Positions 1-22,308 are shown, counted from the first letter of the stretch. The stretch: DNA of 64,000 nucleotides from a virus (IMGVR_UViG_3300028735_000004:160001-224000); one strand, 5' to 3'. A program made the numbers and translations. Notes: generated by a model not told the origin, from the sequence alone.

Positions 1-209
1 ATTGCTTGAGCAAGAGCAAGTTTGCCTTCTTGGGTCATGATTGCACGTGCAATTAATTCATCGCGTTTAGCTTCTGGAAGACCTGAAGCAAGACCTGCGT
101 TTGAAGGTAAATTATCTTGCATTACTGAAGCAAGTTTGGCTAAAGTTTGCATTGCATCTCTTACTGATGAGGCGTTTAATTCGCCTTTTGAGTTAAAAAT
201 TTCAGACAT
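1..209 (-). CDS. Major capsid protein, N-terminal part (runs off the left edge; not in ORF track)
   Basis: ATG at 209 with GGAG SD. Manual translation gives MSEIFNSKGELNASSVRDAMQTLAKLASVMQDNLPSNAGLASGLPEAKRDELIARAIMTQEGKLALAQA(M). Codon usage looks highly expressed (cgt/gct/gca). It lies downstream of the protease-scaffold and decoration genes, and EGKLALAQAM resembles N-termini I recall from large-phage capsid proteins. Confidence 0.7.
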   Translation of the reverse strand, partial: MSEIFNSKGELNASSVRDAMQTLAKLASVMQDNLPSNAGLASGLPEAKRDELIARAIMTQEGKLALAQA

Positions 210-294: not shown

Positions 295-1719
295 TTAAAT
301 ATTTTTTTCAATTTGTTTTTTAAATTCATGTTTTAATGTATTTAGAACTTCTTCAAAATATTCATTTATTTCTTTATCACTAAGATCCTTTTGATTTAAT
401 TTGATTTTACCAAATATTAGATCTTTACTTTTATTCATATAGGAAATTATTTTAAATAATACCATCTTCATTAATGCATTATAATCTTTAATATGATTAT
501 AATTTATATCATACTTAATACTATTAATTACATGCGGTTCAATAAATCTACGATAAAAAATATAATTATCAGTTTTCATTAGATAATAAATTCTTCTACT
601 TACCTCATTAAATCTTTCATTTTTTGTTAAGTGAGAAAAATCTTCTATGCGTTTTTCTTCGTAGCCTCTGGTTTGAACCGGATTGTCTTGATACGGTAAT
701 TCTTCTGGCTCGATATCTAATTTTTCCGGAGGTATTCTATAATTGTCTATATTTATTTCATCAATATAATAAACTGGTAAAGAAGTGTGTTTAGATAATT
801 TTTCTCTAAAAATCTCTAAAATATCATTATTTTCTTCTGGATACATCCTGTTAATTACAATTATAGGCTTTTTGTTTTTCAATCCAGTGATAAACCTAAC
901 AATTGAACGATAAACCATTTTAGGACCTTTGCCTTTAAAGTCCTTACCGGAAGTTAAATAAATAATACCAACATACTTACTTAATATACTTCCTATTAAA
1001 CTTTTATTATATTCTTCATCTTCCCATTTTTGGCAACTGCTAATTCCTCTCTCTGACATAGTACAAAGATCCCAGGCTCCCTCTTTATCTGCACTGAATA
1101 CAACTTCCATTTTAGAAATAGGTACATTGATTGAACTAAAATTTTTAAACGCTTCTAATTTTTCTATTTGTGGTAAATTGAACATACCAAAACTTTTATA
1201 CAGCATTTCACTTATTTTATTATATACTTTTATTAAACTTTGATCTTTATGGAACACTAATTTTTGATTTATATTATCATATATAGTATCACCTAAAATT
1301 AAGCTCACAGTTCCATCTTCATTTTTTACAATTTGATTCAATGGATTACTTAAAATTACATTGAACTTAAGTAATAAATTATACACTGTTTCTTGTTCAG
1401 GAGAAAATACACGATCCCAAGGTTCAAGATCTTGTTTTTCAACATAAAGTGTTTCCTGATACCTATCAAGATCTTTGCATTTTTCACTAACAATACTTTT
1501 AATTTTAGAAACTAAAGATCTTGCTGATTCTAAAGCATCTAAATTTTCTATATTAGAATCTACCTTTTCTCTAAAATTTTTTAAACCGAAATGTTTGAAT
1601 ACCTTATCTACTTCTTTAATATTTTCAAACGCCTTATGTTCTTTAATCCATTCTGGCATTTCTTTATCTTTGAAAACATCTAATGTTGCCAAAGAATATA
1701 ATAAATAAACATAATTCAT
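295..1719 (-). CDS. Hypothetical protein (474 aa)
   Basis: Long ORF with a conserved-looking core DLCTMSERGISSCQKW...VGIIYLTS...RSIVRF...IVINRMYP. Function not recognised. Confidence 0.75.
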   Translation of the reverse strand: MNYVYLLYSLATLDVFKDKEMPEWIKEHKAFENIKEVDKVFKHFGLKNFREKVDSNIENLDALESARSLVSKIKSIVSEKCKDLDRYQETLYVEKQDLEPWDRVFSPEQETVYNLLLKFNVILSNPLNQIVKNEDGTVSLILGDTIYDNINQKLVFHKDQSLIKVYNKISEMLYKSFGMFNLPQIEKLEAFKNFSSINVPISKMEVVFSADKEGAWDLCTMSERGISSCQKWEDEEYNKSLIGSILSKYVGIIYLTSGKDFKGKGPKMVYRSIVRFITGLKNKKPIIVINRMYPEENNDILEIFREKLSKHTSLPVYYIDEINIDNYRIPPEKLDIEPEELPYQDNPVQTRGYEEKRIEDFSHLTKNERFNEVSRRIYYLMKTDNYIFYRRFIEPHVINSIKYDINYNHIKDYNALMKMVLFKIISYMNKSKDLIFGKIKLNQKDLSDKEINEYFEEVLNTLKHEFKKQIEKNI

Positions 1720-2065: not shown

Positions 2066-2989
2066 ATGGATATGTTTGGTGGAGAACCTTGGGCAGAAAT
2101 TAGTAAAAGTTTATTTAAAATAGCCAAATTGAATATTGAAGCTAAAAAAATTAAAAAACAACAAAATATGAAACAAGAAATGAACATCTTGCAACAATTA
2201 GTTGTAGAATTAAATATCTTTGATGGTTTAAGTCATAATACTGATAGTATATTAAAAAATATTCTTAATGAAGAATATAAAGATAAAAAAGAATATCCGG
2301 CACCAAATGATTATAAATTACTAAATGAACAAGGATTACATCAATCAAATGAATTTAAAGATTTAAAATATTTGGATTTAAAATATTTGATGGATTTAAA
2401 AGAAATAATGGATCCAGTCGATGTTTATAAAGAAATAGAAAAAACTCTCACTGAAAGTGGAGATATTCATCGTTTTAAAGATTGGACTACTAAAATAAGA
2501 CAACATCCAAAATATCGCGAAAAATCTGATATTGGATATGAATTATTTCTTATTAAGTATCGTAAAGAATTTTTATATTATATTAAGCAGATTAATATGG
2601 CGATAGACTATATAGATGATGTTATTAATTTAATTAAAGATACTGATGAAATTCAAAGTAATGAAAAAGCAATTAATTTAGCAATTCAAAAAGCATCTGT
2701 AATATTTTATCCAACAATTTTTAGATATAGAAAAGATATTGTAGATGAAGTTATACCAAGAACATCAAATCCTAATAAAATTTATGATTTGTTAAAAAAG
2801 ATGGATTTACTTGCTTACGATGAAATGAAAAATAAAGACTCAATTATAAATCAAATATTTAGAAGCCATTCTTTAAGTCCATTTGAATTTAAAACAAAAC
2901 CAAATATTTTAATCCAAGGTCTGATTAATGATTTGGAAAAATTAAAGAGACATTTACAAAAAGTGTCAAATTATTTACAATCTGTGTAA
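2066..2989 (+). CDS. Hypothetical protein, probably 5'-truncated or frameshifted (frame open from 1847)
   Basis: 307-aa ORF. The same frame is stop-free back to 1847 (AISNELEH...NWTGERGGANYSMDMFGGEPWAEI) but has no ATG/GTG/TTG. A short ATG ORF at 1776..1868 in another frame overlaps it. Confidence 0.7.
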   Translation: MDMFGGEPWAEISKSLFKIAKLNIEAKKIKKQQNMKQEMNILQQLVVELNIFDGLSHNTDSILKNILNEEYKDKKEYPAPNDYKLLNEQGLHQSNEFKDLKYLDLKYLMDLKEIMDPVDVYKEIEKTLTESGDIHRFKDWTTKIRQHPKYREKSDIGYELFLIKYRKEFLYYIKQINMAIDYIDDVINLIKDTDEIQSNEKAINLAIQKASVIFYPTIFRYRKDIVDEVIPRTSNPNKIYDLLKKMDLLAYDEMKNKDSIINQIFRSHSLSPFEFKTKPNILIQGLINDLEKLKRHLQKVSNYLQSV

Positions 2990-3870
2990 TCGTTTTCCCA
3001 TATCGTAATTAAATTATATCCAGACTTTTTAAGCACAGATTCCTTTTCTAAAGTTTCTTGATATAATTCTCCAAAAGTTTTTTTACTATGCGGATTAATT
3101 TTTTCTGCAGAATATTTTTTAGGATTTCCGTGCCAATAATCTCCATAAAATTCATAAATCGTATTAGTCTCTGGAACATAGGCATCTACTTTAAAAGTTT
3201 TATTATTAATTTTAATTATTTTTTGACGACAATTTTCCGGAATATTTAATGAATTAAGCCAAATTTGTTCTATTTTAGATACATTATATGAACATTTACT
3301 GCAGCCCTGTCCATTAAGATGCTTAATCGCCGATTGTTTAAATTCACCGTGTTTTGGACAAATTATTATTAAATAATCACGAGTATTTTTATATTTAACT
3401 ATTTTATATTCATAATAATTATTATGTATTAATTTACATTTATCTATAACATCTTTTAAAGTAAATGCATATATATTTGATAATTTTTCAAATTTGCAAG
3501 CTGGACATCCTTGTCCTTTTAAATGAGATATTGGGCTTTGTTTAAATTCTCCGTGATTTTTACAAAAAATAATTAATTTATACTTATTATGTTTGTAATC
3601 TGATTTTGAATAATCATATTTATAATTATGAATATTATTAGCCTGATCTATAAATTCTTTTAGTGTTTTTTGCTTATTATTGCTGCAAGCGCTACATCCA
3701 AAGCCACTTAAATGATGATCTGGTCTTTGATAAAAACTTCCGTGAATTAAGCATATTATTTCTATATTAGTTTTTGCATTAATATAATTACATTTAGAAT
3801 AATCATATCTATTATTATGAGCTTGTTTTGCTCTATATATAAACTCATCTGTGGTTAGTTTGTGGCTCAT
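2971..3870 (-). CDS. Free-standing homing-endonuclease-like protein: 3 Zn-binding (DUF723-like) repeats plus a PD-(D/E)xK/Vsr-like nuclease domain
   Basis: Three repeats of YDYS/YEYK..Y....IxIxCxxHGxFxQ...HLxGxGCxxC. C-terminal VDAY..IYEFYGDYWHG...GYNLITIWE. Confidence 0.8.
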   Translation of the reverse strand: MSHKLTTDEFIYRAKQAHNNRYDYSKCNYINAKTNIEIICLIHGSFYQRPDHHLSGFGCSACSNNKQKTLKEFIDQANNIHNYKYDYSKSDYKHNKYKLIIFCKNHGEFKQSPISHLKGQGCPACKFEKLSNIYAFTLKDVIDKCKLIHNNYYEYKIVKYKNTRDYLIIICPKHGEFKQSAIKHLNGQGCSKCSYNVSKIEQIWLNSLNIPENCRQKIIKINNKTFKVDAYVPETNTIYEFYGDYWHGNPKKYSAEKINPHSKKTFGELYQETLEKESVLKKSGYNLITIWENDYTDCK

Positions 3871-4682: not shown

Positions 4683-5891
4683 TTATTTTTTAAATTTTTC
4701 TAATATATCTTTAACACTTGGATCTAAATCTAAATCTTCATCTTCTTCACTATCGATAGTAGCTGTTTCTGTAGATAGTGTGCTTTTTGGCCCTTTAGAT
4801 GGAGCGGATGGGGCCTTAGCAACTTGTTCGACTTGACTTTCTGCGTGATCTACATAATCAATTAAAGTTTTAATGTGAGATACCATTTCTTTTAAACTAT
4901 CTTTTAGTGTTAAAAGAGCATTATCTACATCTTCAAAATCATCTGAAACCACAGTTCTATATACTTTATATAAATATTGAAGCCAATTTGGAGATCTTTC
5001 GTCAACAGACCTTTTGATGTGATCTATTTGATAAATCCAAACTTGAATAGAACTTTCTATTTTTTCAACTAATTCATTGTGTTTTTTAATAAACTCAATA
5101 TCTGATTGAAATTTTTTATTTTCTTCTGGACTTAATTTTTGAATTTCAGAAATATTAACAAAGTTGATGCTTAATTTGTTAAAAATTCTTGTAGAGTTTA
5201 TTAACTCAGATAAAACCTTTTTAATTGAACTAAGCATAGATCTTGCGTTTGGTTCTTGTTGCACACTATCTTTACTTAATAAATCATCTATTTCCGCATT
5301 AACTTTTTCGGCATCATTCTTGACGCCTTGAGATAATGGCCTGGCGTGATTGATCCAAGCGGCAGCCCCAATAACAGCGGCTACTCCAGCTGCAGCATAC
5401 CAAAACCAAGCTTTTTTCTGAATTTTATATTGATCTAATTCATCGATGCAGCTATCCGCTAATACTCTTAATTCATCATTATCAATCGCATCCATATGAT
5501 TTGCTGTTTTAATTAAATCTAATAACAATTCTTGTTTTGCATACTTATAATGATCTAAATATCCTTTATTTGGTTTTAATGCAACATAAGTCATTACATT
5601 GTGTCGTTCATTATTATTTTCAACCAAACCGTTCATCTTGTCATATGATGGAGCGATAATGACCGCATTAGGATGAGCTTCTTCTATAATATTATATTCG
5701 TATTCTTGACCTTCTGGTTTAACTCCATATAAAGCTTCAATAGTTGAAATATCATCTGAACCAACTCTTGGGTATGGTTCTTGCTTTTTATATTTTTCTA
5801 AATCTTTAGGTTCTGCTTTTTTAATGATACCTTTTTCAACCATTAAATCTGCATAATTTTCAAATATTTCGCTTTTGGGTAATTTTGGCAT
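4683..5891 (-). CDS. Putative internal head/ejection protein with EAHP module, helical-hairpin motif and hydrophobic segment
   Basis: NIIEEAHP...GLVE...RH; LIKTANHMD...LAD; KKA directly before WFWYAAAGVAAVIGAAAWI; acidic C-terminus. Confidence 0.55.
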   Translation of the reverse strand: MPKLPKSEIFENYADLMVEKGIIKKAEPKDLEKYKKQEPYPRVGSDDISTIEALYGVKPEGQEYEYNIIEEAHPNAVIIAPSYDKMNGLVENNNERHNVMTYVALKPNKGYLDHYKYAKQELLLDLIKTANHMDAIDNDELRVLADSCIDELDQYKIQKKAWFWYAAAGVAAVIGAAAWINHARPLSQGVKNDAEKVNAEIDDLLSKDSVQQEPNARSMLSSIKKVLSELINSTRIFNKLSINFVNISEIQKLSPEENKKFQSDIEFIKKHNELVEKIESSIQVWIYQIDHIKRSVDERSPNWLQYLYKVYRTVVSDDFEDVDNALLTLKDSLKEMVSHIKTLIDYVDHAESQVEQVAKAPSAPSKGPKSTLSTETATIDSEEDEDLDLDPSVKDILEKFKK

Positions 5892-5914
5892 TGTTTCCTC
5901 AAATATAATACATT

Positions 5915-6883
5915 TTAAGTGATATTTTTTGCCGCATCATAAGCAAAACTATCAATAATATCTAAAATTGACTCAAATGGTTGCGGTATAACAAGAAAAG
6001 ACGACGATGATTTGTTTGATGATTTTATTAAACTAATTGTATTTCTAAATTTTGAAGATTTATTAATTGCATCATTAGTTAAAAATGGGTAAATGATTTT
6101 TGCCCATTTAATCAACTGTTCCTCTAAATTAGATAAAGTTAATCCTTGTTGTATCCAAATATTACTGTCATCATTTTTGTGATAAGCTGTTAATTCAGAT
6201 GGTATATTAGGAGATTTAACTAATTTTTGAGCAACATTTGGATCTACTTCAATTTTGGTATCTTTATCTTTACCAACTGTTTTAGATATTGCTGCACCTA
6301 CAGCTGAAAATCCTAATGCTTTAAATGCTGTTTTAATAATCCAAGAAAGAGAACTCATTAAGAATTTAAATATTTTATCTTTAAAAGGTCTAATTACACT
6401 TAGTCCAGCTTTACCTAAAGCTCCAGAATTTTTAACAAAAGATGACATTAAATAAACATCCCTGCTGCTTACTTTAACTTGCTCTAATTTTTCTTCGTCT
6501 TCTGCACCAGAAATATTTTGATTAAATGACTGGCTAACAGCATTATCAACTTTGCTAAAATCTACCTGTTTTTCATCTGTATCTACGGCAGATGTTAAAG
6601 AACTTCCTATAGACGCGATAAAACCTTGTGAATCCCACCCTAATGCTTCAGCAATTGTCCAAATTGCTGATAAAGGGAATGGCAGCATTCCTTTTAAAAA
6701 AAAATCTATAATAGTTGCAACTGGATGTTTATGAAAATCTTCCTTGATTTCATTAAAATAATTCATAACAAAATCTTTAATAATAGAAGATAAGCTCGCA
6801 TCAGCTTTTTTATGCAAACAATACTGATTTAATAAAGATACTAATTTTTCTTGATGATAATATTTTACAAGACCTTTACTCAT
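5915..6883 (-). CDS. Hypothetical head-cluster protein with hydrophobic/amphipathic segments
   Basis: FFLKGMLPFPLSAIWTIAEALGW and FKFLMSSLSWIIKTAFKALGFSAVGAAI. The 4-nt overlap with the neighbour suggests translational coupling. Confidence 0.55.
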   Translation of the reverse strand: MSKGLVKYYHQEKLVSLLNQYCLHKKADASLSSIIKDFVMNYFNEIKEDFHKHPVATIIDFFLKGMLPFPLSAIWTIAEALGWDSQGFIASIGSSLTSAVDTDEKQVDFSKVDNAVSQSFNQNISGAEDEEKLEQVKVSSRDVYLMSSFVKNSGALGKAGLSVIRPFKDKIFKFLMSSLSWIIKTAFKALGFSAVGAAISKTVGKDKDTKIEVDPNVAQKLVKSPNIPSELTAYHKNDDSNIWIQQGLTLSNLEEQLIKWAKIIYPFLTNDAINKSSKFRNTISLIKSSNKSSSSFLVIPQPFESILDIIDSFAYDAAKNIT

Positions 6884-8259
6884 CTATACTTCGAGGCAGC
6901 CATTTGAGCTCTGTTCCTCGCTCCAGTTTCCATATCATTAGCAAATCTCATATATTTTTGATATAATGATAATTGACCATCTATTAATTGGCTAATTCTT
7001 GGATTATCCATTCTTTCTTTATATTCTTGAAGATAATAAGAAGTTGTATTTAAAATTTGTTTTAAAATATTTGCTAAAGCTTGAGCATTATCAAAATTCT
7101 TAATATCATAATTTGCTAACAAATTATCAACCGAATCAGAGCTAAAAGATAATTGCGGAATACCATCATCTAATGAATTGCCGACTCTATCAGTCCATTC
7201 TCCACTATATTTTATAAAATTATTATATAATGTGTTTAAAACAGGATTATCTCCCTTTGTTTTTTTCATAAAATCATTTATTCTACTAAACCGCAAACTA
7301 TTAGGTACAAATGGTAAAGATGTAGAGAGAGATTGTAGTTGTTGAACTTCCGCTGAATCCTGAGAACTATCAATTGTTGTTGTAGATGTATCACTATAAG
7401 ATTTTAATAAATCTCTAATTATCTTTAAATAATAATTTTTAATTGCTTCATCTAATTTTGCCAAAGCTCTTTTTTCTAAATATTTTAGGAAATACACAAT
7501 ATTTGGCACTGTATCTAATTTTATCTGATTATCACCTTGTTTTATAGTAATTTGTTTATATAAATTACCTATATTAGATGAACTAAGTGTTTCTGGAGTA
7601 ATTGGTATATTACCTTCTTGTGTGTAATTTACGGTTCCATCCGCAATTATTACTGATGGAATTTTATCTAAAATAGTCTTTGCGTCTAGAGCTGTTTTAC
7701 CAGATATTTCTTGTGGTGTTTTATCGCCATCCAATTCGATAGTTGCTGGTTCTATATTAATATCGTAATCTTTTAGATCTTGATTTGCTTTATTAATTAA
7801 TTTATTCAAAACATCTTGAGTTAATGGATTATTTTTAAATTCTGTTTTTAATTTTTCAATAAAATCAATCAAACCTTCTTTATAAATTCTACAAATGGGC
7901 ATATCATTAATAAATTCAGAAGATCTTTTATATATAAAATATAAATCTTTAGGAAAATTCTTTAATTCTTCGTAGGTTTCTCCGACAGGACCGCTAAGCA
8001 CTATTGGTAAATTATTATATTTTATTTTATTTTGTTCCAAAAATGTTATTAAACTATCTAATGAAGTTAGATCTTTTAAATACATTTCAGCAGAAGTATC
8101 AGAAGAAACATCAACTTGATTTAATAAATTATCAATTAATCTTAGAGCAAGTTGTTGCGTTTCAACTTCTCTTGTTTGAGCTGATTTATACAAAGAATCA
8201 AATAAACCTGATTCAATTATTAATTTACCTAAAACTTCTAGTTCAAAAAGAAAAGACAT
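6880..8259 (-). CDS. Hypothetical head-cluster protein (459 aa)
   Basis: Long ORF in a coupled operon; KSAQ near the N-terminus. Confidence 0.7.
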   Translation of the reverse strand: MSFLFELEVLGKLIIESGLFDSLYKSAQTREVETQQLALRLIDNLLNQVDVSSDTSAEMYLKDLTSLDSLITFLEQNKIKYNNLPIVLSGPVGETYEELKNFPKDLYFIYKRSSEFINDMPICRIYKEGLIDFIEKLKTEFKNNPLTQDVLNKLINKANQDLKDYDINIEPATIELDGDKTPQEISGKTALDAKTILDKIPSVIIADGTVNYTQEGNIPITPETLSSSNIGNLYKQITIKQGDNQIKLDTVPNIVYFLKYLEKRALAKLDEAIKNYYLKIIRDLLKSYSDTSTTTIDSSQDSAEVQQLQSLSTSLPFVPNSLRFSRINDFMKKTKGDNPVLNTLYNNFIKYSGEWTDRVGNSLDDGIPQLSFSSDSVDNLLANYDIKNFDNAQALANILKQILNTTSYYLQEYKERMDNPRISQLIDGQLSLYQKYMRFANDMETGARNRAQMAASKYR

Positions 8260-8261
8260 TA

Positions 8262-9269
8262 TTAAAATCCTGGTTCAGATTGAAGAACTGTTTGTGTAGC
8301 ACTTAACTGTTGTTTCATATTTTCTAAAACTTTTTTAATGTTGGCAGGGCTCGTATCTTGCCCTAATACTGCTAAAAATTCTTTAAAATTCTTTAAACTC
8401 ATTAAGTGCTTTATTCTTGGTTGTTCTGGCTTGCCTCCAGATTCTAATCTAACATTTTCAACTATTGCGTTTTGATGTTGTTGGGCATTTGTGAAATCTT
8501 GTTTAGATATTTGATTTTTACCTATAGATAATAATGGTTTTTCTTGACTTATAAGATCTTTGAATTGAGGGTTCTCTAATACATTTTGTTCAAATTCTTT
8601 ATATAAACCTTCTATTTTTTTAATAAATTGTGTTGCTTTAACAATATCACCTAATTTAGAAAAAGATAATGATTGAAATTGAGCTAAGTCAGCATCAGTA
8701 AAAGACTTTGATTCAAGACCCATTGTTTTATTGAAATTAATTATTCCGGATGCAAATCTTAATGCATTAATTAACGCCGTTGCTGTTCTTGCTCCAAATA
8801 ATCCGTCCGGTTTTCTTTCAATTCCTCTTTCACCAGATCCTTTGCCTACGAAACTAATTGCATTAATTAAAGATCTAATATCTAACGCCGGTGTTTCGCT
8901 AACTTGTTTTCTTAAAGGTTGTAATAATGGTTCTTTGGTTTCTAAATGAGTAAAAGTCAAATCTTTTTGAATAAAATTATTTAATAAATAATTATTAAAA
9001 GCATTATGACCATAACTTGTTGGTGTCATAGATGCAAATGTATGACTTGAAATAGTTTTTGCTAAATCAATTAACGCTTGTTGCATATCCATTACGGCCT
9101 GATTAGCTCGCTGTGATACTATGGGAGCCACCTGTTTAGTTGTAGCCGGGACTTCTTGTTTTTGTATGGACGGAGGCGCTTTTTGTTCTACTAAAGTAGA
9201 TTTTATTTTTCCTCCCTGTAATGAAGGAGGTAAATCAAAATAATCTATACTTTGAGATATTTTTTTCAA
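8262..9269 (-). CDS. Hypothetical head-cluster protein with a peptidoglycan-binding-like motif
   Basis: TTG start with GGTG SD. PDGLFGARTATAL resembles the DGxxGxxT motif of PG-binding domains. Confidence 0.55.
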   Translation of the reverse strand: MKKISQSIDYFDLPPSLQGGKIKSTLVEQKAPPSIQKQEVPATTKQVAPIVSQRANQAVMDMQQALIDLAKTISSHTFASMTPTSYGHNAFNNYLLNNFIQKDLTFTHLETKEPLLQPLRKQVSETPALDIRSLINAISFVGKGSGERGIERKPDGLFGARTATALINALRFASGIINFNKTMGLESKSFTDADLAQFQSLSFSKLGDIVKATQFIKKIEGLYKEFEQNVLENPQFKDLISQEKPLLSIGKNQISKQDFTNAQQHQNAIVENVRLESGGKPEQPRIKHLMSLKNFKEFLAVLGQDTSPANIKKVLENMKQQLSATQTVLQSEPGF

Positions 9270-10426
9270 ACTTCACCTTCTTCAAACCAAGATTTTTTAA
9301 TATTATTTAATATAGATAAAAATCGACTATTTACATCATTATATTGTTTTTCCAATTCTTCCGCTCTATCAAATCCAAAAAGTTCTTTAAATTTTAATTT
9401 ATTAAATCTTAATAATTCTACTTTGTTAGATAGTAAATTTTTAATTATTTCATTAGTATTAATGTAGCTGTTTAATTTTTTATTTAAATCATTTCTTATT
9501 TTAGAAATATAACTTAACGCATCTTTTTCGTTTGATGGTAATTTATTTTCTATATCTGCAAATTCCGTATCATATTTTGATAAATTAGAAATTTGCTTTT
9601 CTACATTAAATTTTACTTTTTTAATCTCATTCAAATAATCCTCTGGAGAAATGGTTTGCGTAGTTATTTGAAAATTTTCAATTATTTTTATAGATTCAAT
9701 ACAGGTTGATTGTAAATTATTAATTTGTGTAGATATCATTTCATAAGATGATGAATTAAGATATTTTTTATTTGATTCTATTTTATTATTATATAATTTA
9801 ATAAAAGCAAGAATATCACTAATATCGGCGGCGACGCCCTCTGCCGATTTAAATTTTTCAACAGCATTACTTAACTGATTAAAAATCTTATTTAAATTAT
9901 AAGTCCATCTATTTAAAATATCGGTTATATTTGGTCCAATAGATAATGTTTGCCCCTTAAACCTAAATCTTTCTATATTTAAAAATTCTCTATGTTCTCT
10001 GGCAGATTTAAGTAATGCTGAATGGGCCGTTTTAAAATCTTCAAATGATGCACTAATATCACCCCTTGCTTGTTGCAAAGCATCATTTATAGTATATGCA
10101 TTAGATGTTTTAAATGATGCAGTTTTATTTACCTTTTTTTTTGGATCTGTTGATACTACATCAACAATTTTTTCGTGTTGAGATAAAATAGTTTCAACAT
10201 CACCGTGATTATCTTTAGCATCAAATAATTTAACATCACCTTTTGGATGCGCCTCATTAATTAAATCTTCACCGGTTTCGTCGATAACATTATATAAAGA
10301 TGTTTCGGCTAATTTAAATGCAGCCAATTTTTGTTCAAGATTGTCAGCATATTTGTCAAAACCTGATTTTCTTAATTTTGAACATAAAACTAATAAATTT
10401 TGATATAACATATTATCTTTAGCCAT
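9266..10426 (-). CDS. Putative internal head protein (helical-hairpin plus EAHP modules, coiled-coil C-terminus)
   Basis: LCSKLRKSGFDKYAD; LINEAHPKG...GDVE...QH. Confidence 0.6.
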   Translation of the reverse strand: MAKDNMLYQNLLVLCSKLRKSGFDKYADNLEQKLAAFKLAETSLYNVIDETGEDLINEAHPKGDVKLFDAKDNHGDVETILSQHEKIVDVVSTDPKKKVNKTASFKTSNAYTINDALQQARGDISASFEDFKTAHSALLKSAREHREFLNIERFRFKGQTLSIGPNITDILNRWTYNLNKIFNQLSNAVEKFKSAEGVAADISDILAFIKLYNNKIESNKKYLNSSSYEMISTQINNLQSTCIESIKIIENFQITTQTISPEDYLNEIKKVKFNVEKQISNLSKYDTEFADIENKLPSNEKDALSYISKIRNDLNKKLNSYINTNEIIKNLLSNKVELLRFNKLKFKELFGFDRAEELEKQYNDVNSRFLSILNNIKKSWFEEGEV

Positions 10427-10484
10427 AATAACCTTTTAAATATAATTCAATATAATGCCAAATTAATAGCATCTGTAGATAAAA

Positions 10485-11177
10485 TTATCGCCAAAGAAAC
10501 TGTAATGATGACATTAATGCATTTGGAGGAGCTACAACAGTTGCTACTGCTGGATAATTTTCTGCAATTTGTCTCGTTGTTAATAGTCCTTCTTCACTGA
10601 CAAATAAGTTGGCATTTAAAGGATAATATTGATTGACTTCAAATTTAGTTGTTTCTCCAATAAATCTTCCATACCATACAGTCATACGACCAGATCCCAT
10701 AGTGCTATCATCACCAATGATATTAGGAACTTGATAAGTATATCTAACAGTGGTTCTTATTGCATTTGGTGTTCCGGTTCCAAGAGTGTCATAATTTAAT
10801 TGTGTGCCAGCTGGAATAATAATTACGCCATTTCTTGGAATTAAGCTAACTTTAATTGGATCGGAAACAAAACTATCTGGAACTATATTTGGATTTTCTA
10901 ATTCGGTTTTAATATCAACTGGAGTAATAATTGTGTTATTTGGGCCAGCAACTCCGGCCGCATTAACAATAATTACTTCATCCCAAGAATTAGCGTGAAT
11001 TGCTTTTGTTCTTATATCATCAATAATTCCTATAGGAGCGGTACCATTGCTAACAGTTGCTACAATTTGATTACCTAAAGATGTTAATTGAGCAACCATT
11101 CCTGGCTCAAATTCAGCTGCCGGATCTACTGGCCAATAATATGGTCTTGCGCTTAATGAATTAATTATTCTTAACAT
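10485..11177 (-). CDS. Putative head decoration/cement protein, paralogue of 3936..4601
   Basis: FEPGMV and GDDSTMGSGRMTVW...EGLLTT align with FLGGEV and GPHTAVGSGKITLW...GKLTA. Confidence 0.55.
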   Translation of the reverse strand: MLRIINSLSARPYYWPVDPAAEFEPGMVAQLTSLGNQIVATVSNGTAPIGIIDDIRTKAIHANSWDEVIIVNAAGVAGPNNTIITPVDIKTELENPNIVPDSFVSDPIKVSLIPRNGVIIIPAGTQLNYDTLGTGTPNAIRTTVRYTYQVPNIIGDDSTMGSGRMTVWYGRFIGETTKFEVNQYYPLNANLFVSEEGLLTTRQIAENYPAVATVVAPPNALMSSLQFLWR

Positions 11178-11203
11178 TTAAACCTCTTAATATAATATAT
11201 CAC

Positions 11204-11232
11204 AAAAAAATAAAGCCACATAAAGTGGCTTA
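11204..11232 (-). terminator. Rho-independent terminator
   Basis: Stem AAGCCAC-ATAAA-GTGGCTT followed by a T-tract on the minus strand, downstream of the 11256 stop. Confidence 0.7.
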
Positions 11233-11255
11233 TATTTCGTATATTAATTTTTTTA

Positions 11256-12083
11256 TTATTCTTCATCTTCCCAATCTTTAGTATCTTTTACAAGTTTTTT
11301 TAATAAATCATCAAACTCTTTATCTTGTGCCCAATTATCATCGGCATCATTATCATCAAAGAGATTATCATTATCCTCATCATCACCAAATGGATCATCG
11401 CCTTTGTAAAACATAGCTTTTTCCCATTGTTCTGGCAAATGTTTATCATCTGCACTTACATCTTCTTCAGATAATTGATCTACGCTTTTGTCAAAAATTT
11501 CTACATCTGTATCAAATTTACCATCACTGGCATCATTAGTGTCGTTAAAAACCCAACCTTTTTCTTTAAGGTTTTTTACCATTTTTTCGCTTGTTAATTT
11601 ATCTGTTTTAGATTTGTCTTTTTTGACTACTTTTTTAAGATCTTTTTTGGTTTTAGATTTATCTTCTTTTTTATCTTTTGCTTTTTTCTTTGCCTCAACT
11701 ATTAAAGTATCAGCTAATGTTATTGCGTATGCAGATAATTTATCGAAACCAGCAATATCTAATTCTTCAGAAGCTTTCAATAAAGAATTAAGAGCTACTG
11801 ATACCATATCCGCTTCGGCATTTAAGCCAGGATTACAATCACATCCTTTTTCGCAATCTCCTGGCTGACAAGAACAAGGACCCTCGCTCATTTTAGCAAA
11901 TTTACCATCACAACCTTTACAAACATCGGCTGCAGAGGAGGTTAATTCTTGTTCTACTTCAGATACATTTTCTTCCGATACTTTATTGAAAGCAAGTTTT
12001 TGCAACATTGCTGATTTGGAAAACATATCTTTATTTGCTTCAAAGGCATCTACCATTAAAGAAGCTATATCATATTTTTTCAT
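11256..12083 (-). CDS. Hypothetical head protein, possibly scaffold/internal (Cys cluster, basic patch, acidic tail)
   Basis: CKGC..CSC..C..GCDC, LLKASEELDIAGFDKLSA, a K-rich segment and a D/E-rich C-terminus. Directly downstream of the protease gene. Confidence 0.6.
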   Translation of the reverse strand: MKKYDIASLMVDAFEANKDMFSKSAMLQKLAFNKVSEENVSEVEQELTSSAADVCKGCDGKFAKMSEGPCSCQPGDCEKGCDCNPGLNAEADMVSVALNSLLKASEELDIAGFDKLSAYAITLADTLIVEAKKKAKDKKEDKSKTKKDLKKVVKKDKSKTDKLTSEKMVKNLKEKGWVFNDTNDASDGKFDTDVEIFDKSVDQLSEEDVSADDKHLPEQWEKAMFYKGDDPFGDDEDNDNLFDDNDADDNWAQDKEFDDLLKKLVKDTKDWEDEE

Positions 12084-12092
12084 TAAATCCTC

Positions 12093-15000
12093 TTAATATT
12101 TTTTGCTAGAGAAGGCTTTTTCGAGTTGTGAACGAAGGTCTTCTTTTTCTACTGCCGCTGCAAAAGGATCTTCTGAACCTAATTGACCGACTAATGGAAT
12201 TCCTGCTTTTTTGGTCATAGCAGCTTTTGCTGCTATTACTCTTTTGAAACTATCAAAAGCTTCGTCATTCCATTTCATAATATCATCAACTTGTGCAGAG
12301 ATAGCTGAACGATCATTTGCTAATAATCCTTTTGAAACCATATCATACGCTGTTTCATAAGCGCGAGCAATTTTAACACGGTATACTTTCATTTGCTCAT
12401 CAAGTTCGGCTTTAGCGTGTTCTTTAATTAATTCTGTCGCAAATTGAGAACTTTCTTTATCTGCTTCTGCAAAATATTGTTTCCAATATTTGACTGCATC
12501 TGCATCTACGCCGTGTGCAACTAATTCGTCAACACGAGCTGGATCAAGTTTTCCTTCTGATACAAGTTTTTGAATTCTCTCAGCATCTTTACGAACTTTC
12601 ACTGGTGCTTGAGCAACTTCAACTGATTTATCGTGTTGTTCTTTAAGATCTTCTACTTTGCCAAGTTCATCAGATGGTTTTACATCTAATTCGGTTTGTG
12701 TTCCGCCTTTTGGATGAGCTTCATCAAGAACCTGGCTCATTTCAACAGATTTTTGCGCTAATTTAGCACGAGCGGCTGCACGAGCTTCTTTAGAGTCTAA
12801 TGATGCTAATTTAGCTTTTTCCATTACCATTTTTGAAATGTCTGCATCTGGAACTTCTATTTCTAATTTAACATCATTCATATCTTTTTCGGCTACTTCA
12901 TCTTCTACCATATCGCAATCATCTGCTTCTTTTGTATCTTCAACATCTGCCATATCAGCCGCATCTGCCATTTGGGCTTGTTTGAGTAATAAAGCTTCTG
13001 TGCCACGAGCGTATTTAACAAATGCTTTTTTGAGATTACGAGCATCTGCTAATGCTGATTTGGCGTCAGAAATTGCATCTTGAACAACAAAATTAGCATA
13101 TTCTTCGTTAAGATCTAAGGTTTCGTCATCTAACATACTTGCAATTAATTCTAATTCTTTTGTATGTTCTGATAATTCATCAACTGATTTTGATAAACCG
13201 TCAATTAAGCCTTGATTTAAATCTTGGCGCATTTGATGTAATGAAGCTAATTCATCAGAAGCGGTTGCTCCTAAATTAGCCATATCACCCATTTCCGCTT
13301 GTTCTCCAACTAAGGATTTAACAGCTTCATCTAAATCAGATATATCTTCTTTTAATTTTGAAACTAAATCTAATACAGTTTCTTTTACATCACCTGATTT
13401 ATCAGTTGCTTCTGGTTCTTCCGCTGGAGCTTCCATTTGAGGCATTTCTGGCATTTCTGGAGCTGGCATTGCTGCTGCTTCATCACCTACTGATGGAGGA
13501 ACTGGAGCTGCTCCGCCGGCTTCTGCTGGAGCTGCGGGTTGCGCACCCATACCAGAAACTGCTTGTGATTTTTTGTAAAGACTTGCAGCTTTTGCTAAAC
13601 CAACTTCTTTTACTTTAGCTAAAATTTTGCTACCAAATTCTTTAGTTGCAATTGTATCATAGAGAACTTCTGTATTTCCACCAGAAATTTCTTTTACTGT
13701 TGCTGATAATGCTAATTTATCATCAACAAATACCTGCCAGGCGCTATTATCTTTATCTTCTGAACCATCTATATTAGCCGCTTTAACGAAGCGAGCTTTT
13801 AATGGTGTTGCGCGGCTTAACATTTGTTTACGTTTTAATTCATCTTTTTCATCAGCTGATTCTGGACTTGGGTGTAATCCATCTACATCACCAACTTCAG
13901 GAAATGGTTTTTGTCCAACCATTGTTTTATCTTCTTTGCGCGCTTTTTCGGCAAGAGGATCTTTTTCGTATTTTGGTTTACCTGGTGTTGGTTCATTGAC
14001 GCCACCGCCACCTTGGAAATATGCTTGTTTACCTTTCATTACGGTCTCCTTGGCTTTTTCTAAAGCAGCAGCGCGACGAAGTGATCTTTCTTCAGCTTCG
14101 GCACGAGCCAACATTTTTTTACGCTCTAAATCTGATACGCCAGCACTGCCAGGATGCATACCGTCAACTGGGCCTGTATCAAGGTTATTTTGACCTACCA
14201 TCTGTTTGTCTTCAAATCTTGCTTTTTCAGCAAGAGGGTCTTTTTCGTATTTAACTTGACCCGGAGTAGGTTCATTAACGCCGCCGCCACCTTGAAAGTA
14301 TGCTTTTTTATCCATTTTTTCCTTTGTATCAGACATAATTTCCTCTTTTATTTTATATGATAAAACTTTGATATGTTGTTCCATATTATTTAATTTACTT
14401 TCCACAACATCTTTTAAATCAGTAAGTGCTTTAGAAACATTAGAAGCAATTACTTTCTCTGGAAAATCTAAATTAAAACCTTCATTTGGTAAAATTGTTT
14501 CTGACATTTCTTTATCGCCAGTCATACCATATGGAGCTGTTGAAGATTCTTCGGATTCAAGAGAATTTTTAATTTCTGATATTTGATCTGCTATTTTTTG
14601 CACTTCTAATTCTAAATCTTCTAATTTAGAAACATTTTCGTCATTGTCAGCCAAACTAACAAATTCAGATTCTTTTCTTTCAATGTATTTGTTTAAGTTG
14701 TTAGCAGCTGCAAGAATTGTTCTAATTTTTGCTTTAGGATCCGCTCCATTAACAACAATAGATAATTCGATAGGATTTAAATCTACATTTATTTCGCCAT
14801 AACATGATTTAGTTCGCATATGATTACAGAAATCAGCTTCGGAGCGTGCTACCTGACCACAATCAGAACATATGGCTCTACCTACTGCGGTGCCCATAGA
14901 AACACAAGTTGCATAACCAGCCGCTACTTTTTTAGCCAAATCTGGATATGTAATTTTGTCTAAAGCACATAAAGCAACTACTCTTTTAAGAGATCTATCA

Positions 15001-15455
15001 TAGTAAGTATCTAAAATAACACCACGAATAGCATCTACTGAACTTGATTTATGATCAACACAAAGTGGTTTTCCAATCCATTTTTTATGAGCTTTTATTA
15101 ACTCTTCTTCTGGAAAGATATCACCATTAGAGTTCTTATATGGTTTTAAAGAAGGATCGTTTGATTCCCACTTCCAAGTACCACCTTCTTTATTCCAAGA
15201 TGCTTTTACAATTGTGCCATCTGATAATTTCTTAGGAGTTCCATCAGGATTAACTGTGGAAGCTTCAGCAGCGTGCATCATTACTGCCGAAAAATAAAGA
15301 AAATCATTAGCTTTGGGAGCAATTCTTTTAAGCTCACCAGCGAATTTTTGAAATTTTTCGGTAATTTCCTGATCTGACAACACAGATAATACAGATTCTT
15401 GTGTTTGTACATCTGCCGGGGTTAATTCTATTAGTTCGCCAAGTTTAATAAACAT
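12093..15455 (-). CDS. Prohead protease-scaffold fusion protein (1120 aa)
   Basis: N-terminal protease-type motifs NxNGDIFPEEEL, GKPLCVDH, SMG, CSDCG..CNHM, GEIN..IELSIV..ADP. These are followed by coiled coils, two tandem repeats, an Ala/Pro linker, acidic helices and an EAHP module. Located between portal and capsid genes. Confidence 0.75.
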   Translation of the reverse strand: MFIKLGELIELTPADVQTQESVLSVLSDQEITEKFQKFAGELKRIAPKANDFLYFSAVMMHAAEASTVNPDGTPKKLSDGTIVKASWNKEGGTWKWESNDPSLKPYKNSNGDIFPEEELIKAHKKWIGKPLCVDHKSSSVDAIRGVILDTYYDRSLKRVVALCALDKITYPDLAKKVAAGYATCVSMGTAVGRAICSDCGQVARSEADFCNHMRTKSCYGEINVDLNPIELSIVVNGADPKAKIRTILAAANNLNKYIERKESEFVSLADNDENVSKLEDLELEVQKIADQISEIKNSLESEESSTAPYGMTGDKEMSETILPNEGFNLDFPEKVIASNVSKALTDLKDVVESKLNNMEQHIKVLSYKIKEEIMSDTKEKMDKKAYFQGGGGVNEPTPGQVKYEKDPLAEKARFEDKQMVGQNNLDTGPVDGMHPGSAGVSDLERKKMLARAEAEERSLRRAAALEKAKETVMKGKQAYFQGGGGVNEPTPGKPKYEKDPLAEKARKEDKTMVGQKPFPEVGDVDGLHPSPESADEKDELKRKQMLSRATPLKARFVKAANIDGSEDKDNSAWQVFVDDKLALSATVKEISGGNTEVLYDTIATKEFGSKILAKVKEVGLAKAASLYKKSQAVSGMGAQPAAPAEAGGAAPVPPSVGDEAAAMPAPEMPEMPQMEAPAEEPEATDKSGDVKETVLDLVSKLKEDISDLDEAVKSLVGEQAEMGDMANLGATASDELASLHQMRQDLNQGLIDGLSKSVDELSEHTKELELIASMLDDETLDLNEEYANFVVQDAISDAKSALADARNLKKAFVKYARGTEALLLKQAQMADAADMADVEDTKEADDCDMVEDEVAEKDMNDVKLEIEVPDADISKMVMEKAKLASLDSKEARAAARAKLAQKSVEMSQVLDEAHPKGGTQTELDVKPSDELGKVEDLKEQHDKSVEVAQAPVKVRKDAERIQKLVSEGKLDPARVDELVAHGVDADAVKYWKQYFAEADKESSQFATELIKEHAKAELDEQMKVYRVKIARAYETAYDMVSKGLLANDRSAISAQVDDIMKWNDEAFDSFKRVIAAKAAMTKKAGIPLVGQLGSEDPFAAAVEKEDLRSQLEKAFSSKKY
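13809..14309 (-). repeat. Two tandem 70-74 aa repeats inside the protease-scaffold gene (14100..14309 and 13809..14030)
   Basis: K[KQ]AYFQGGGGVNEPTPG..KYEKDPLAEKAR.EDK.MVGQ......VDG.HP...RK.ML[AS]RA occurs twice. Confidence 0.9.
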
Positions 15456-15689: not shown

Positions 15690-16308
15690 TTTTATTTAAT
15701 ACTTTATTTTTATACTCTAATAATTGTTGCATTAATGGAGTTTTTTCCTTGATTTTTTCTTGCATCTCATTACCAACTGTATCTACCCAAGTTTTAGCAA
15801 GAATATTATCCTGAAAATATGGAGAAACTCGATTTTCAATTACTTCTTCTATTTGGGCACATTCTTTTTTAATTAATTCAATGCCTTTTAATACAGATGG
15901 AACAAATTCTTTGGAATCTAATTGTGAAAAAAGTTCAGCAAATCTATTTACTTGTTTTTCTAAATCATTAATAGATGAAACAAAAGATTTAACTATCTTT
16001 ACTAATTGAGTATCTGAAACAAATGATTGCATTAATGAGTATGAAATAAATGCTTGTTTTTTAAATAAATTAAATTTTTCTATAATTGTATCTCTATATT
16101 CTCTTAAAGAAACTCTTATTTTAAATATTTCTTCTGGAGTAATATCTGATTTATTTTTAAATGGATTATACATTAAATCTAATGTTTTTTCCGCAGTTTT
16201 TAAATCTTTTAGTAATTTCGAAAATGATTTTAAAATTTTTTCTGCCTGAAGTTTTTCACCTTCAGTAATCTCATAACTCATTTGCATTAAATATGATTTC
16301 TTTTTCAT
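15682..16308 (-). CDS. Hypothetical helical protein
   Basis: Likely start is ATG 16308 (ATGA overlap with the phosphatase stop) rather than 16314. Confidence 0.7.
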   Translation of the reverse strand: MKKKSYLMQMSYEITEGEKLQAEKILKSFSKLLKDLKTAEKTLDLMYNPFKNKSDITPEEIFKIRVSLREYRDTIIEKFNLFKKQAFISYSLMQSFVSDTQLVKIVKSFVSSINDLEKQVNRFAELFSQLDSKEFVPSVLKGIELIKKECAQIEEVIENRVSPYFQDNILAKTWVDTVGNEMQEKIKEKTPLMQQLLEYKNKVLNKNQ

Positions 16309-17063
16309 ACACACCCTGTACCAACCGATGATGGAGCTAAGCCATTAATACCTTGGTTTTGATCCCAAACTCCAATATTAGGAATTGTATTTTCACTTAT
16401 ATCTATATCCATATTTATTGCATCATCTAATTTATAATTTAATCTATTTTGATATTGATTTGAATAATAATTTTCAGTATTACCATCTGGCCATCTAATT
16501 ATTCTTGCATCTTCAAATGGTGCCCAAGATGGATTCATATTGGTTGGAATGAAATCCCCATACATACCTACTTCATCTTTTACATTGTTAACAATATCAT
16601 ACGCTTCATTTATATCTTCTGAATTACAAAATAATTTGATAAAATTTGTATATAATTTTATTATCTTAGGATCTACTCCTATACCAAAACCTAATTTTTT
16701 AGCTTCTTTAATTGCCTTATCATATGACCAATTTTGATATTTGCATCTATAAATAGCGGATAATAATCCTGTTCTATCTTTTCCGTGCAAACAATGAATG
16801 AAGGTTTTTTTACCCAAAAATAAATCATTTAAATTATATTTTAATAAATTTAATAAGGTAGATTTACGATGAGTACTAAGATCTATTATTATATGCTCTA
16901 ATCCTAAAAGTTTGCAAATTCTATCTATGGCTTTACCTATTTTGGCATCTAAACTTATTATTCTTTCTATCCCAAATTTTTCTTTGAGCAAACGCAAATC
17001 TTTTACAGAGGGTTTTCCGCCTCTATATAGATTTTTATCAATTTTTTTAAATCTACTAATCAT
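16305..17063 (-). CDS. Cys-based tyrosine/dual-specificity-family phosphatase with C-terminal extension
   Basis: HCLHGKDRTG matches the CX5R signature; the N-terminal LYRGG motif is typical of the family. Confidence 0.85.
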   Translation of the reverse strand: MISRFKKIDKNLYRGGKPSVKDLRLLKEKFGIERIISLDAKIGKAIDRICKLLGLEHIIIDLSTHRKSTLLNLLKYNLNDLFLGKKTFIHCLHGKDRTGLLSAIYRCKYQNWSYDKAIKEAKKLGFGIGVDPKIIKLYTNFIKLFCNSEDINEAYDIVNNVKDEVGMYGDFIPTNMNPSWAPFEDARIIRWPDGNTENYYSNQYQNRLNYKLDDAINMDIDISENTIPNIGVWDQNQGINGLAPSSVGTGCV

Positions 17064-20592: not shown

Positions 20593-22308
20593 TTAAGGAG
20601 CTTTAGGTGATGGAGGTGGAGTTAAATCTGGTGGAATGCCAGAAGTATCAGGAATGCCGGAAGGTTCTCCCCCACCAGATGGACCAGCTTCATAAGGTGA
20701 TTGTCCAGGTAAAGGCGGTTCTAATATTTCTGGAATATCAGCATCATCAGTTAAAGACCTTAATTCATTGAGAGGCATTTGTTTAAGAGATTCTTTCTCT
20801 TTTTCTCTAATTGCTTCTGCAATATCTTCTTTTCTAATCTTTCTTCTTTCTTCTTCCCATTCCAATCCTAAAGATCTATATAAAGTTTGTTGTGAAACTC
20901 GTTTTGGATCTCCGGTTAATTGAATTAAAAAGTTAATATAATCAGCCGCATCAAATAAGCTCATATGATTCCAGTCAATATCTGGAACTATAAGAACTTT
21001 TTTCTTATCTTTAAATTCGTAAAATTCATTGAGTTTAGAAATGGGAGCAAAAATACGACGACGAAGCCAGGTTGTCATCATATTTCTAAACTGCATATAA
21101 CGCTGTCTTAATACATCAAGAGATATACCACCGTTAGCATATGTAATATCTCCACCACCTTCCATAACTACTTGTGGTACCATTAATCCAATATAAATTT
21201 CTTTAATTAATTGCGTAATATCTCCTGAAATATCATAAATACCTTGACCAGAACCTATTCTTTCTATAGATACCTGATCGTGAGTAATGATTTTAAAATC
21301 TTTATCATATTGTGCTTGTTCTATCAATTCTCTCCAAGCTTCAAGATCTGCCGGAGTTGGCTTATATTCAGTACCTGCCCCTCCAACTTTAACAAGAGTT
21401 AAAGGATTAATCATATTAGCGGCTTGTGCAAATTTAGATTCTCTTAATAAATCGAATAACATTAATTGTCTAAATACAGAAACTGGAAGCCCAGTGCCTC
21501 TATGTGCATATGGGCTTATTTTTCTTGCCAAATGTGAAACATAAAAATTATCAAGAGGTATATTTTCGCCTCTTCTTACTCTTTCAATTATTGCCGGATT
21601 TAACTGATTTCTTTGTTCTATGTCGGATGGATTATTTGACATTACTATCTTGCGTAAATTTTCATCCGGTCTTAACATAATTAACGGCTCATTTGCTATA
21701 ACCGTTTTTTTAACAACTATATAATCTGGATTTTGTATTGCTAATCTACTCCATTTTAATGATTTTGAGTCTAACTCCGCATATACAAAAGCTTCACCTA
21801 ACAACCAATATTCTTGAGCAACTTGAACACAAATATTCATTAAATCTATTTCTTCAATCATTTCATTAAAGAAATCTTCTACTTTTTTATTTGGACATTT
21901 AATGTTTAATTTACTAATAGGATATGTGCTATGCAAATTAATAGCGTTTTGTACTATGGGATTTAAGGCATAAAATGATCTGCACCAGGCATTTATTGTA
22001 GCCTGGTCTCTTGGTAAATTAAGATTTGAATTAAGCCATAATGGAGAATAAACTTCAGGCGTTTGTCTTACAGTTCCACCTGAACCTTGCCAAGAAGTTC
22101 CAGAACTACTGCTGGCTAATTGAGCATTTTTAACAATAGTTGAATATGATGCTTGTGTTAATTCATTTTTGTTTTTAAGATTACCAGATCCATCCTTAAA
22201 TAAACCGGCCTCTACCTCTTCTCCAAGTGTTTCTCGCCTATATTGGGAAACGGATTTATACATTAATGGAGTAATTGATGGTACATATTTTTTAGTATTA
22301 TCTGACAA
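20593..22308 (-). CDS. Portal protein
   Basis: Follows the large terminase. Motifs RSFYALNPIVQNAINLH, AQEYWLLGEAF, YAHRGTG and TLVKVG; Pro-rich C-terminal tail; TTG start with GGTG SD. Confidence 0.8.
   Translation of the reverse strand: MSDNTKKYVPSITPLMYKSVSQYRRETLGEEVEAGLFKDGSGNLKNKNELTQASYSTIVKNAQLASSSSGTSWQGSGGTVRQTPEVYSPLWLNSNLNLPRDQATINAWCRSFYALNPIVQNAINLHSTYPISKLNIKCPNKKVEDFFNEMIEEIDLMNICVQVAQEYWLLGEAFVYAELDSKSLKWSRLAIQNPDYIVVKKTVIANEPLIMLRPDENLRKIVMSNNPSDIEQRNQLNPAIIERVRRGENIPLDNFYVSHLARKISPYAHRGTGLPVSVFRQLMLFDLLRESKFAQAANMINPLTLVKVGGAGTEYKPTPADLEAWRELIEQAQYDKDFKIITHDQVSIERIGSGQGIYDISGDITQLIKEIYIGLMVPQVVMEGGGDITYANGGISLDVLRQRYMQFRNMMTTWLRRRIFAPISKLNEFYEFKDKKKVLIVPDIDWNHMSLFDAADYINFLIQLTGDPKRVSQQTLYRSLGLEWEEERRKIRKEDIAEAIREKEKESLKQMPLNELRSLTDDADIPEILEPPLPGQSPYEAGPSGGGEPSGIPDTSGIPPDLTPPPSPKAP

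Follow-up and report, generated by a model that had tools for sequence, protein, structure and literature searches.

How the heads of huge phages are built, and how the inner proteins packaged in them are chosen, is poorly known. Here, we analyze a 64,000-nucleotide stretch of viral DNA (IMGVR_UViG_3300028735_000004:160001-224000, hereafter the window) in which a module of about 50 residues, marked by an EAHP motif, is encoded three times within the head-gene block: once in a gene for a protease-scaffold fusion and once in each of two genes for proteins of 386 and 402 amino acids (aa), hereafter the partners. The clade concerned has no cultured member, and its nearest cultured relative, phage G, carries no copy of the module in the 28.6-kb stretch of head genes examined.

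The capsid-targeting sequence (CTS) of phage T4, for which the original study is said to be that of Mullaney and Black in 1996, is a conserved N-terminal address on otherwise unrelated head proteins, which guides them to the core of scaffolding protein before the prohead protease cuts it off. It is found on the internal proteins IPI-III and Alt (PMC3012670, PMC5694885), comprises 10-20 residues and ends in L/I-x-E (PMC5694885). The module described here is likewise N-terminal in the two non-scaffold head proteins (aa 53-103 of the 386-aa and aa 66-118 of the 402-aa protein), for which targeting and removal are proposed by analogy. The two elements differ in that the CTS occurs on many kinds of cargo, which vary, and is not a copy of a scaffold segment, whereas the module, of about 50 residues, also lies inside the scaffold, ends in K-x-A and is otherwise confined to two core genes.

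In phage SPN3US, the inner head proteins gp47, gp53, and gp54, which have homologues in phiKZ and 201phi2-1, bear propeptides of more than 100 residues with several cut sites; these propeptides, which probably target the proteins to the prohead, are removed by the prohead protease, and mature gp47 begins with a transmembrane segment (PMC5694885, PMC10052503). The predicted mature form of the 402-aa protein would resemble gp47 in having a membrane-span-like segment near its N-terminus. SPN3US, however, belongs to another lineage with an A-x-E code, and these papers report neither a cassette shared with a scaffold nor a confirmed scaffold counterpart in those phages (PMC5694885, PMC10052503). 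The partners show no sequence likeness to the SPN3US ejection proteins, as neither matches a PHROG family. The module would work like these targeting propeptides but is a member of neither the T4 nor the SPN3US group, being longer, unrelated in sequence, bounded by a different putative end site, present in the scaffold too and otherwise limited to two genes.

The herpesvirus proteins pUL26/pUL26.5 (MEROPS S21) provide a case of an N-terminal capsid protease, of the assemblin fold with a Ser-His-His triad, fused to a scaffold with release and maturation sites; a cut after an Ala close to the C-terminus detaches the scaffold from the tail that binds the shell. The fusion protein of the window appears to be organized in a similar manner, combining an N-terminal maturation protease with a scaffold and with near-invariant K-x-A at aa 898-900, 956-958, and 1082-1084. 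It has no sequence or profile match to any solved structure, the likeness being one of sequence organization, and herpesviruses are not known to have an equivalent module common to other capsid-internal proteins. Short tethers to the inner face of the HK97-fold shell, disordered until bound, are known from the P22 scaffolding protein and from encapsulin cargo-loading peptides. The P22 element is a coat-binding helix-turn-helix at the C-terminus of the scaffolding protein (PMC11565965). Both kinds of element are C-terminal and not excised by a protease, and the P22 element is basic, whereas the module is acidic (net charge of -4 to -6 in the predicted excised peptides); they share no homology with it.

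The module in three head genes

A preliminary description of this DNA had placed three EAHP segments in the window, and their ranges do cover real reading frames, all on the minus strand (Table 1). EAHP occurs in real frames at these three sites within the 64-kb window, and a looser search for E[AS]HP returned one more match, a plus-strand ESHP in a frame antisense to a 322-aa gene. When a profile built from the scaffold copy (120 orthologues) was run against all six-frame segments, the 386-aa protein was recovered at E = 2e-8 and the next match was the 402-aa protein, on the correct residues, at E = 0.098. Profile-profile comparison (hhalign) restricted to the module connected the scaffold with the 386 family (96.6%, E = 4.7e-10), the 386 with the 402 family (89.9%, E = 1.7e-6) and the scaffold with the 402 family (70.3%, E = 4e-5). 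Moreover, a 443-aa relative that was outside all training sets was matched by all three family profiles. Profile searches found no fourth copy in the window and, outside the module, the 386 and 402 families were only weakly alike (15% probability for the post-module regions), with no demonstrable relationship among the proteins. On these comparisons, the likeness exceeds chance by far, and the three EAHP segments are homologous.

That the module lies outside described families, as had been supposed, also held in the profile searches. In Pfam-A, the scaffold matched no family at E ≤ 0.1 and the partners gave only sub-threshold matches that missed or barely grazed the module; in PHROGs, the two partners had no match and the scaffold was matched via its protease domain only; and no description of the module was found in the literature. 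The module is real, clade-wide and, as far as found in Pfam, PHROGs, and the literature, undescribed. The protease-scaffold label that one carrier had received is sound, because its product matches phrog_18299 'head maturation protease' (E = 4e-15, aa 110-216) and, by tblastn, phage G gp19 and annotated prohead/capsid-maturation proteases in its N-terminal part, and phage G gp21, a scaffold-like protein, in its C-terminal part. The gene sits between the portal and capsid genes, and the fusion protein has at least 120 homologues of 837-1619 aa, on contigs of up to 498 kb.

The distribution of the module was examined by an exhaustive profile search over 1.84 billion cluster representatives, which returned 829 matching representatives at E ≤ 1e-3 and 166 at E ≤ 1e-10. 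Architectures were read from the 150 best of the 829 matches, and all of those seen were of the scaffold or of the two partner types: protease-scaffold fusions, shorter proteins in which about 155-175 residues separate the module from the C-terminus (the scaffold-type distance), and partner-type proteins, about 350-520 residues long, that carry it at residues 42-135. We read the shorter scaffold-type proteins as either stand-alone scaffolds or truncated gene calls. Within viral contigs, a single-protein scan found no relatives and an alignment-based scan found them. Exactly three modules were present in each of five whole IMG/VR records (268-473 kb, three of them at least 97% complete), residing in the scaffold gene and then in genes about 3-5 kb and 8-10 kb downstream, and the same triad was found in 23 of 27 further loci with full flanks as well as in L002 and L003/L004. 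This constancy across records and loci indicates that the module is the mark of a constant trio of core head genes in a single large, uncultured clade. Homologues of the 386 family are syntenic, following the 230-aa cement-like gene in relatives, and the 402-aa protein, with 193 homologues, is encoded in relatives by the gene that immediately precedes those for the decoration and major capsid proteins. The fixed, clade-wide triad fits the idea of the preliminary description that the carriers co-assemble in the prohead core, of which scaffold binding would be a part.

No other part of the partners is as well conserved as the module region, in either family. In the 402 family, aa 41-100 have an identity of 58-75% and the residues after aa 160 one of about 9-30%; in the 386 family, the values are 55-66% for aa 1-100 and 23% onward from aa 101, the fall from 57% to 23% occurring exactly at the terminal K-T-A. 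Such a pattern would be expected if the module contacts assembly machinery that is itself conserved, while the remainder of the protein evolves fast. In AlphaFold2 models made with deep alignments, the module had a predicted local distance difference test (pLDDT) of 61-73 when modeled within the scaffold construct and of 48-69 within the N-terminus of the 402-aa protein, with a short helix at the module start and a 12-residue helix directly after V-E in both models, and the helices flanking the module reached 80-97. The module alone has no confident autonomous fold in these models, and high conservation together with low model confidence is typical of, and suggests, a binding motif.

Residue conservation was evaluated over 378 module instances, comprising 167 scaffold-type and 211 partner-type copies. 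The best-kept positions, given for scaffold-type and partner-type copies respectively, are Glu 26 (99% and 100%), Glu 30 (90% and 94%), Pro 18 (94% and 93%), Val 25 (86% and 91%), and Ala 7 (81% and 98%), in addition to a Gly or Ala two residues before the Val, which exceeds 90%. His 8 is present in 99% of the partner-type and 66% of the scaffold-type copies (Asp 21%, Asn 8%). The residue before Ala is Glu in 38% of the scaffold-type copies and has no majority in the partner-type ones, and the 'second His' is His in 58% of the former, the latter having Gln in 72% and His in 18%. An alignment of 87 segments from the three families left the Glu of 'VE' as the sole invariant residue, with the Ala of 'AHP' above 90%; within the 402 family (87 sequences), A72, H73, E91, and E95 are invariant. 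The consensus of the preliminary description accordingly has to be amended: its first Glu and second His are not conserved, and [VI]-x-P-S-x-D, a second Glu (VE-x3-E), and the terminal K-x-A are to be added.

The same counts bear on the metal site that had been proposed for the E, H, E, and H of that consensus. A four-ligand site is not a conserved feature of the module, because only the Glu of 'VE' is invariant and the other proposed ligands vary: the first Glu and the second His in both types of copy, the latter being mostly Gln in the partners, and the first His in the scaffolds. A small metal-binding element with corrected ligands (His/Asp at position 8, Glu 26, and Glu 30) would agree with the near-universal His 8 of the partner copies, with the H/D/N found at that position in 95% of scaffold copies and with the conservation of both Glu residues. 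We nevertheless consider it very improbable, given that two of the four originally proposed ligands are not conserved, that Asn at position 8 is a poor ligand, that the module matches no known metal motif or Pfam family and that no compact fold is predicted to bring the three ligands together; a salt-bridge interface would explain the conserved acidic residues equally well.

Lys-x-Ala sites and the proposed fate of the module

Lys-x-Ala sites of fixed position accompany the module in all three families. In 81 scaffold C-terminal regions, K-L-A lies eight residues before the module in 99%, K-[DE]-A closes the module in 88%, and a further, near-invariant K-x-A (K207 and A209 in alignment A1), 36 residues short of the C-terminus, is found in 91%. 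In the 386 family (7-member alignment), K-L-A precedes the module in 86% and K-T-A follows it in 100% of the sequences, and in the 402 family K-Y-A follows it in 93%. Over the 378 instances, a K-x-A ends 11-16 residues past the helix in 88%, versus 28% at random positions of the same proteins. The capsid protein, in turn, has a 45-residue N-terminal extension, which phage G lacks, with L-A-K-L-A|S at aa 23-28 in the window and L-V-K-Y-A|A in a relative. Tandem arrays exhibit the same boundary: the 386-type protein P0275 (L085, 7611-8978) has three modules, each ending in K-[KR]-A, in a genome whose scaffold and 402-type protein have one copy each, and P0365 has two, each ending in K-x-A. Since every tandem unit ends in this manner, duplication acts on the cassette together with its terminal K-x-A.

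A T4-like cut, [IL]-x-E|A at E|AHP, fits the three window copies and was dropped because the residue before Ala varies in orthologues. The hydrophobic-x-E expected of a T4-type site before AHP has Glu in about 80% of the 402 family, and the scaffold copies have Asp there in 50% and Gln and Gly in 11% each.

Given the conserved K-x-A bracketing the module, which the preliminary description had not noted, the module is to be read as a cassette that is probably removable rather than as a permanent domain, and co-assembly in this sharper form, with K-x-A as the delimiter, is the leading hypothesis. The reading that we favor, tentatively and with a little less than even confidence, is that of a scaffold-derived docking cassette that would co-assemble two core head proteins with the scaffold and would then be excised. 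The cassette of about 50 residues begins with a short hydrophobic helix followed by A-H-P, continues through V-x-P-S-x-D in extended form and G-x-V-E to an amphipathic helix (about 12 residues), and ends in K-x-A. It may have originated in, or be common to, the head scaffold, where it lies between a long coiled-coil body and the conserved C-terminal helical domain, the partner cassettes lying in the N-terminal 100-120 residues. Folding only on binding, it would dock all three proteins at one common prohead site, for which another module, the scaffold core or the inner shell face are candidates, so that both partners would be incorporated along with the scaffold. Once the prohead is assembled, the protease fused to the scaffold would cut the flanking Lys-x-Ala sites. 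The acidic peptides released would have about 58, 63, and 92 residues and the mature partners left behind about 283 and 284, with a membrane-span-like segment near the new N-terminus of one of the two. The cassette thereby predicts which proteins enter the prohead, where they would be cut, and the sizes of peptides and mature products. The three position-fixed K-x-A sites per genome are places to test the proposed, unproven Lys-x-Ala cleavage code and, if the docking tag is true, foreign proteins could be loaded into capsids, as with the T4 CTS.

Several points weigh against the docking cassette. The binding, the binding partner, the cleavage at K-x-A, and the removal are all steps that we infer, and it is gene position and the shared module that suggest the partners to be internal or virion proteins. 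The module is confined to three core genes, unlike a general packaging tag, which might occur across diverse cargo. The upstream K-x-A of the 402 family is patchy, reaching 79% at one column and missing there in the window protein. Raw K-x-A counts are 55 observed versus 42.7 expected in the head block and 66 versus 49.6 in the other window genes, which is about 1.3 times expectation in both alike; the head block has no enrichment of its own, and the support for these sites consists of positional conservation only. Finally, in the literature, including PMC12484599, no cleavage data were found for phage G or the clade.

Two further readings place the cut elsewhere or dispense with it. In the first, the module would be a protease recognition site cut after the invariant Glu of G-x-V-E, so that a propeptide would take the first half of the module with it and the mature protein would start at the helix. 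A cut after Glu is made by every large-myovirus prohead protease cited for which the site has been measured, with the codes L/I-x-E for T4 gp21, S/A/G-x-E for phiKZ gp175, and A-x-E for SPN3US gp245 (PMC10052503, PMC5694885), and the high conservation of Glu 26, of the preceding Val, and of the Gly/Ala two residues earlier would suit such a site. The fixed and free positions are reversed, however, for the known codes fix P3 and leave P2 free, whereas here P2 (Val) is fixed and P3 is free. G-x-V-E-[TDN] is not N-terminal in other window head proteins and is absent from the capsid N-terminal extension, the P0275 array ends on K-K-A rather than on V-E, and the second conserved Glu four residues on, along with the hydrophobic spacing, resembles a helix surface. 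We therefore find a V-E cut quite unlikely.

In the second, the module would be retained in the mature proteins and work after assembly, as an anchor to portal, shell or DNA or in ejection, with K-x-A having a structural part such as that of helix ends. Removal of the module is itself a proposal, composition alone makes K-x-A common, a confidently predicted helix of the 402-aa protein starts at K116-Y-A118, and in the SPN3US work regions that one giant phage cuts away as propeptides can be retained by a relative (PMC5694885). Against retention stand the occurrence of the module in the scaffold, which is normally transient in tailed phages (established knowledge; PMC5694885), the sharp drop in 386-family identity exactly at the terminal K-x-A, and the K-x-A limits of the tandem units, and we hold it to be unlikely.

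As for what the docking cassette would bind, the three cassettes might bind one another, one contributed by the scaffold, one by the 402-type protein with its membrane-span-like segment and one by the 386-type protein, forming a defined hetero-trimeric strand-plus-helix bundle that would nucleate or pattern the prohead core, possibly at the membrane, and be dissolved by the K-x-A cuts; in some phages, three tandem copies are found in one protein. We give this a low probability; if true, the cassette would be a portable, self-removing tag for loading proteins into huge-phage capsids. A complex prediction between the scaffold C-terminal fragment (14-215 of A1) and the 402-family N-terminus (1-125) scored 0.00 and, being without controls, bears neither way.

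The fusion gene and its neighbors in the head block

The window is AT-rich, with a GC content of about 27%, and its encoded proteins were located on a 243,941-bp contig. MEGABLAST of the window against 50,697 phage records gave no nucleotide-level match. The head-gene block lies on the minus strand, with the terminase first and the capsid gene last (Table 1).

Table 1. Features of the head-gene block and of the module carriers, in window coordinates (ORF, open reading frame)
Feature	Position	Strand	Basis or remark
Large terminase gene	22374-24215	-	First in head block
Portal gene	20593-22308	-	Second in head block
Small genes, including a Tyr-phosphatase-like one	between portal and 1120-aa genes	-	
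Protease-scaffold fusion gene, 1120 aa	12093..15455	-	ORF, PHROG and tblastn matches
Protease domain, aa 37-250	14706..15347	-	PHROG, tblastn, alignment
Lys-Leu-Ala, scaffold aa 898-900, upstream of module copy 1	12756..12764	-	Putative maturation site
Module copy 1, scaffold aa 907-958, ends K-D-A	12582..12737	-	EAHP at aa 912-915
Scaffold C-terminal helical domain, aa 959-1084, ending K-K-A (aa 1082-1084)	12204..12581	-	AlphaFold2 and alignment
Gene for 275-aa acidic Cys-rich protein	11256-12083	-	Directly after scaffold gene
Gene for 230-aa protein	between 275-aa and 386-aa genes	-	Weak cement/decoration-like leads
386-aa head-module gene (module carrier 2)	9266..10426	-	ORF; no Pfam or PHROG match
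Lys-Leu-Ala, 386-aa protein aa 38-40, upstream of module copy 2	10307..10315	-	86% of 7-member family
Module copy 2, 386-aa protein aa 53-103, ends K-T-A	10118..10270	-	EAHP at aa 58-61
Three ORFans	between 386-aa and 402-aa genes	-	
402-aa head-module gene (module carrier 3)	4683..5891	-	ORF
Module copy 3, 402-aa protein aa 66-118, ends K-Y-A	5538..5696	-	EAHP at aa 71-74
Hydrophobic, membrane-span-like segment, 402-aa protein aa 162-180	5352..5408	-	Kyte-Doolittle 19-residue mean 1.57
221-aa gene	between 402-aa and HNH endonuclease genes	-	Candidate decoration protein
HNH endonuclease gene	2971-3870		Between 221-aa and capsid genes
Major capsid protein gene, first 69 codons	3..209	-	Runs off window start

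In the alignment of the protease domain of the fusion protein, H135 and S186 are near-invariant and probably catalytic, and C196, C199, and C210 are invariant, with H212 near-invariant. Cys196, Cys199, Cys210, and His212 (CSDCG...FCNH) make up an insert that is zinc-ribbon-like. Compared with solved structures by sequence and by profile, the protease domain gave no relevant match. The C-terminal helical domain, part of which matches phage G gp21, was modeled by AlphaFold2 with pLDDT mostly of 80-97 and a dip near construct residues 121-130, and a Foldseek search of the model against the PDB returned nothing at E ≤ 0.001.

Two tandem repeats of about 90 residues occupy scaffold aa 383-560 (window 13776-14309, minus strand); each starts K-[KQ]-A|YFQGGGGVNEPTPG and contains [DG]-[ML]-H-P, and they may be further K-x-A-delimited units. 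Some homologues of the fusion protein (P0023, P0040, P0060, P0066, and P0082) are 1526-1619 aa long and have intein and LAGLIDADG Pfam matches, and inteins have therefore invaded this head gene in several relatives.

A Tyr/dual-specificity-phosphatase-like gene (16305-17063, minus strand) lies within the head block and is found in the same place in the relatives L002, L003, and L085. The 275-aa protein is very acidic, carries the Cys cluster CKGCDG...CSCQPGDCEKGCDC, and has no family match in Pfam or PHROGs, and the search of the 230-aa protein against solved structures was without a match. The 221-aa gene probably codes for a decoration protein, as suggested by a weak match to phage G gp26 and by its position before the capsid gene in relatives. 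It is split from the capsid gene by two ORFan genes, 2066-2989 (plus strand) and 295-1719 (minus strand), and by the HNH gene; in the relatives L004 and L085, the decoration-candidate and capsid genes adjoin each other. The capsid gene itself was identified by tblastn with the Phage_capsid_4 protein of L004 (67% identity, E = 1e-22).

The hydrophobic segment of the 402-type protein is conserved, lies 44 residues past K-Y-A, and has an equivalent place in P0349 and P0352. It is Ala/Gly-rich, reading WFWYAAAGVAAVIGAAAWI, and suggests that the 402-aa protein is a membrane-active or membrane-anchored head protein. The sequences of the capsid protein (3-209, minus strand) and of the 402-aa protein (5814-5891, minus strand) open alike, with ...SEIF... 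and with a K-x-A about 25 residues from the start, which may represent a second, shorter shared N-terminal element.

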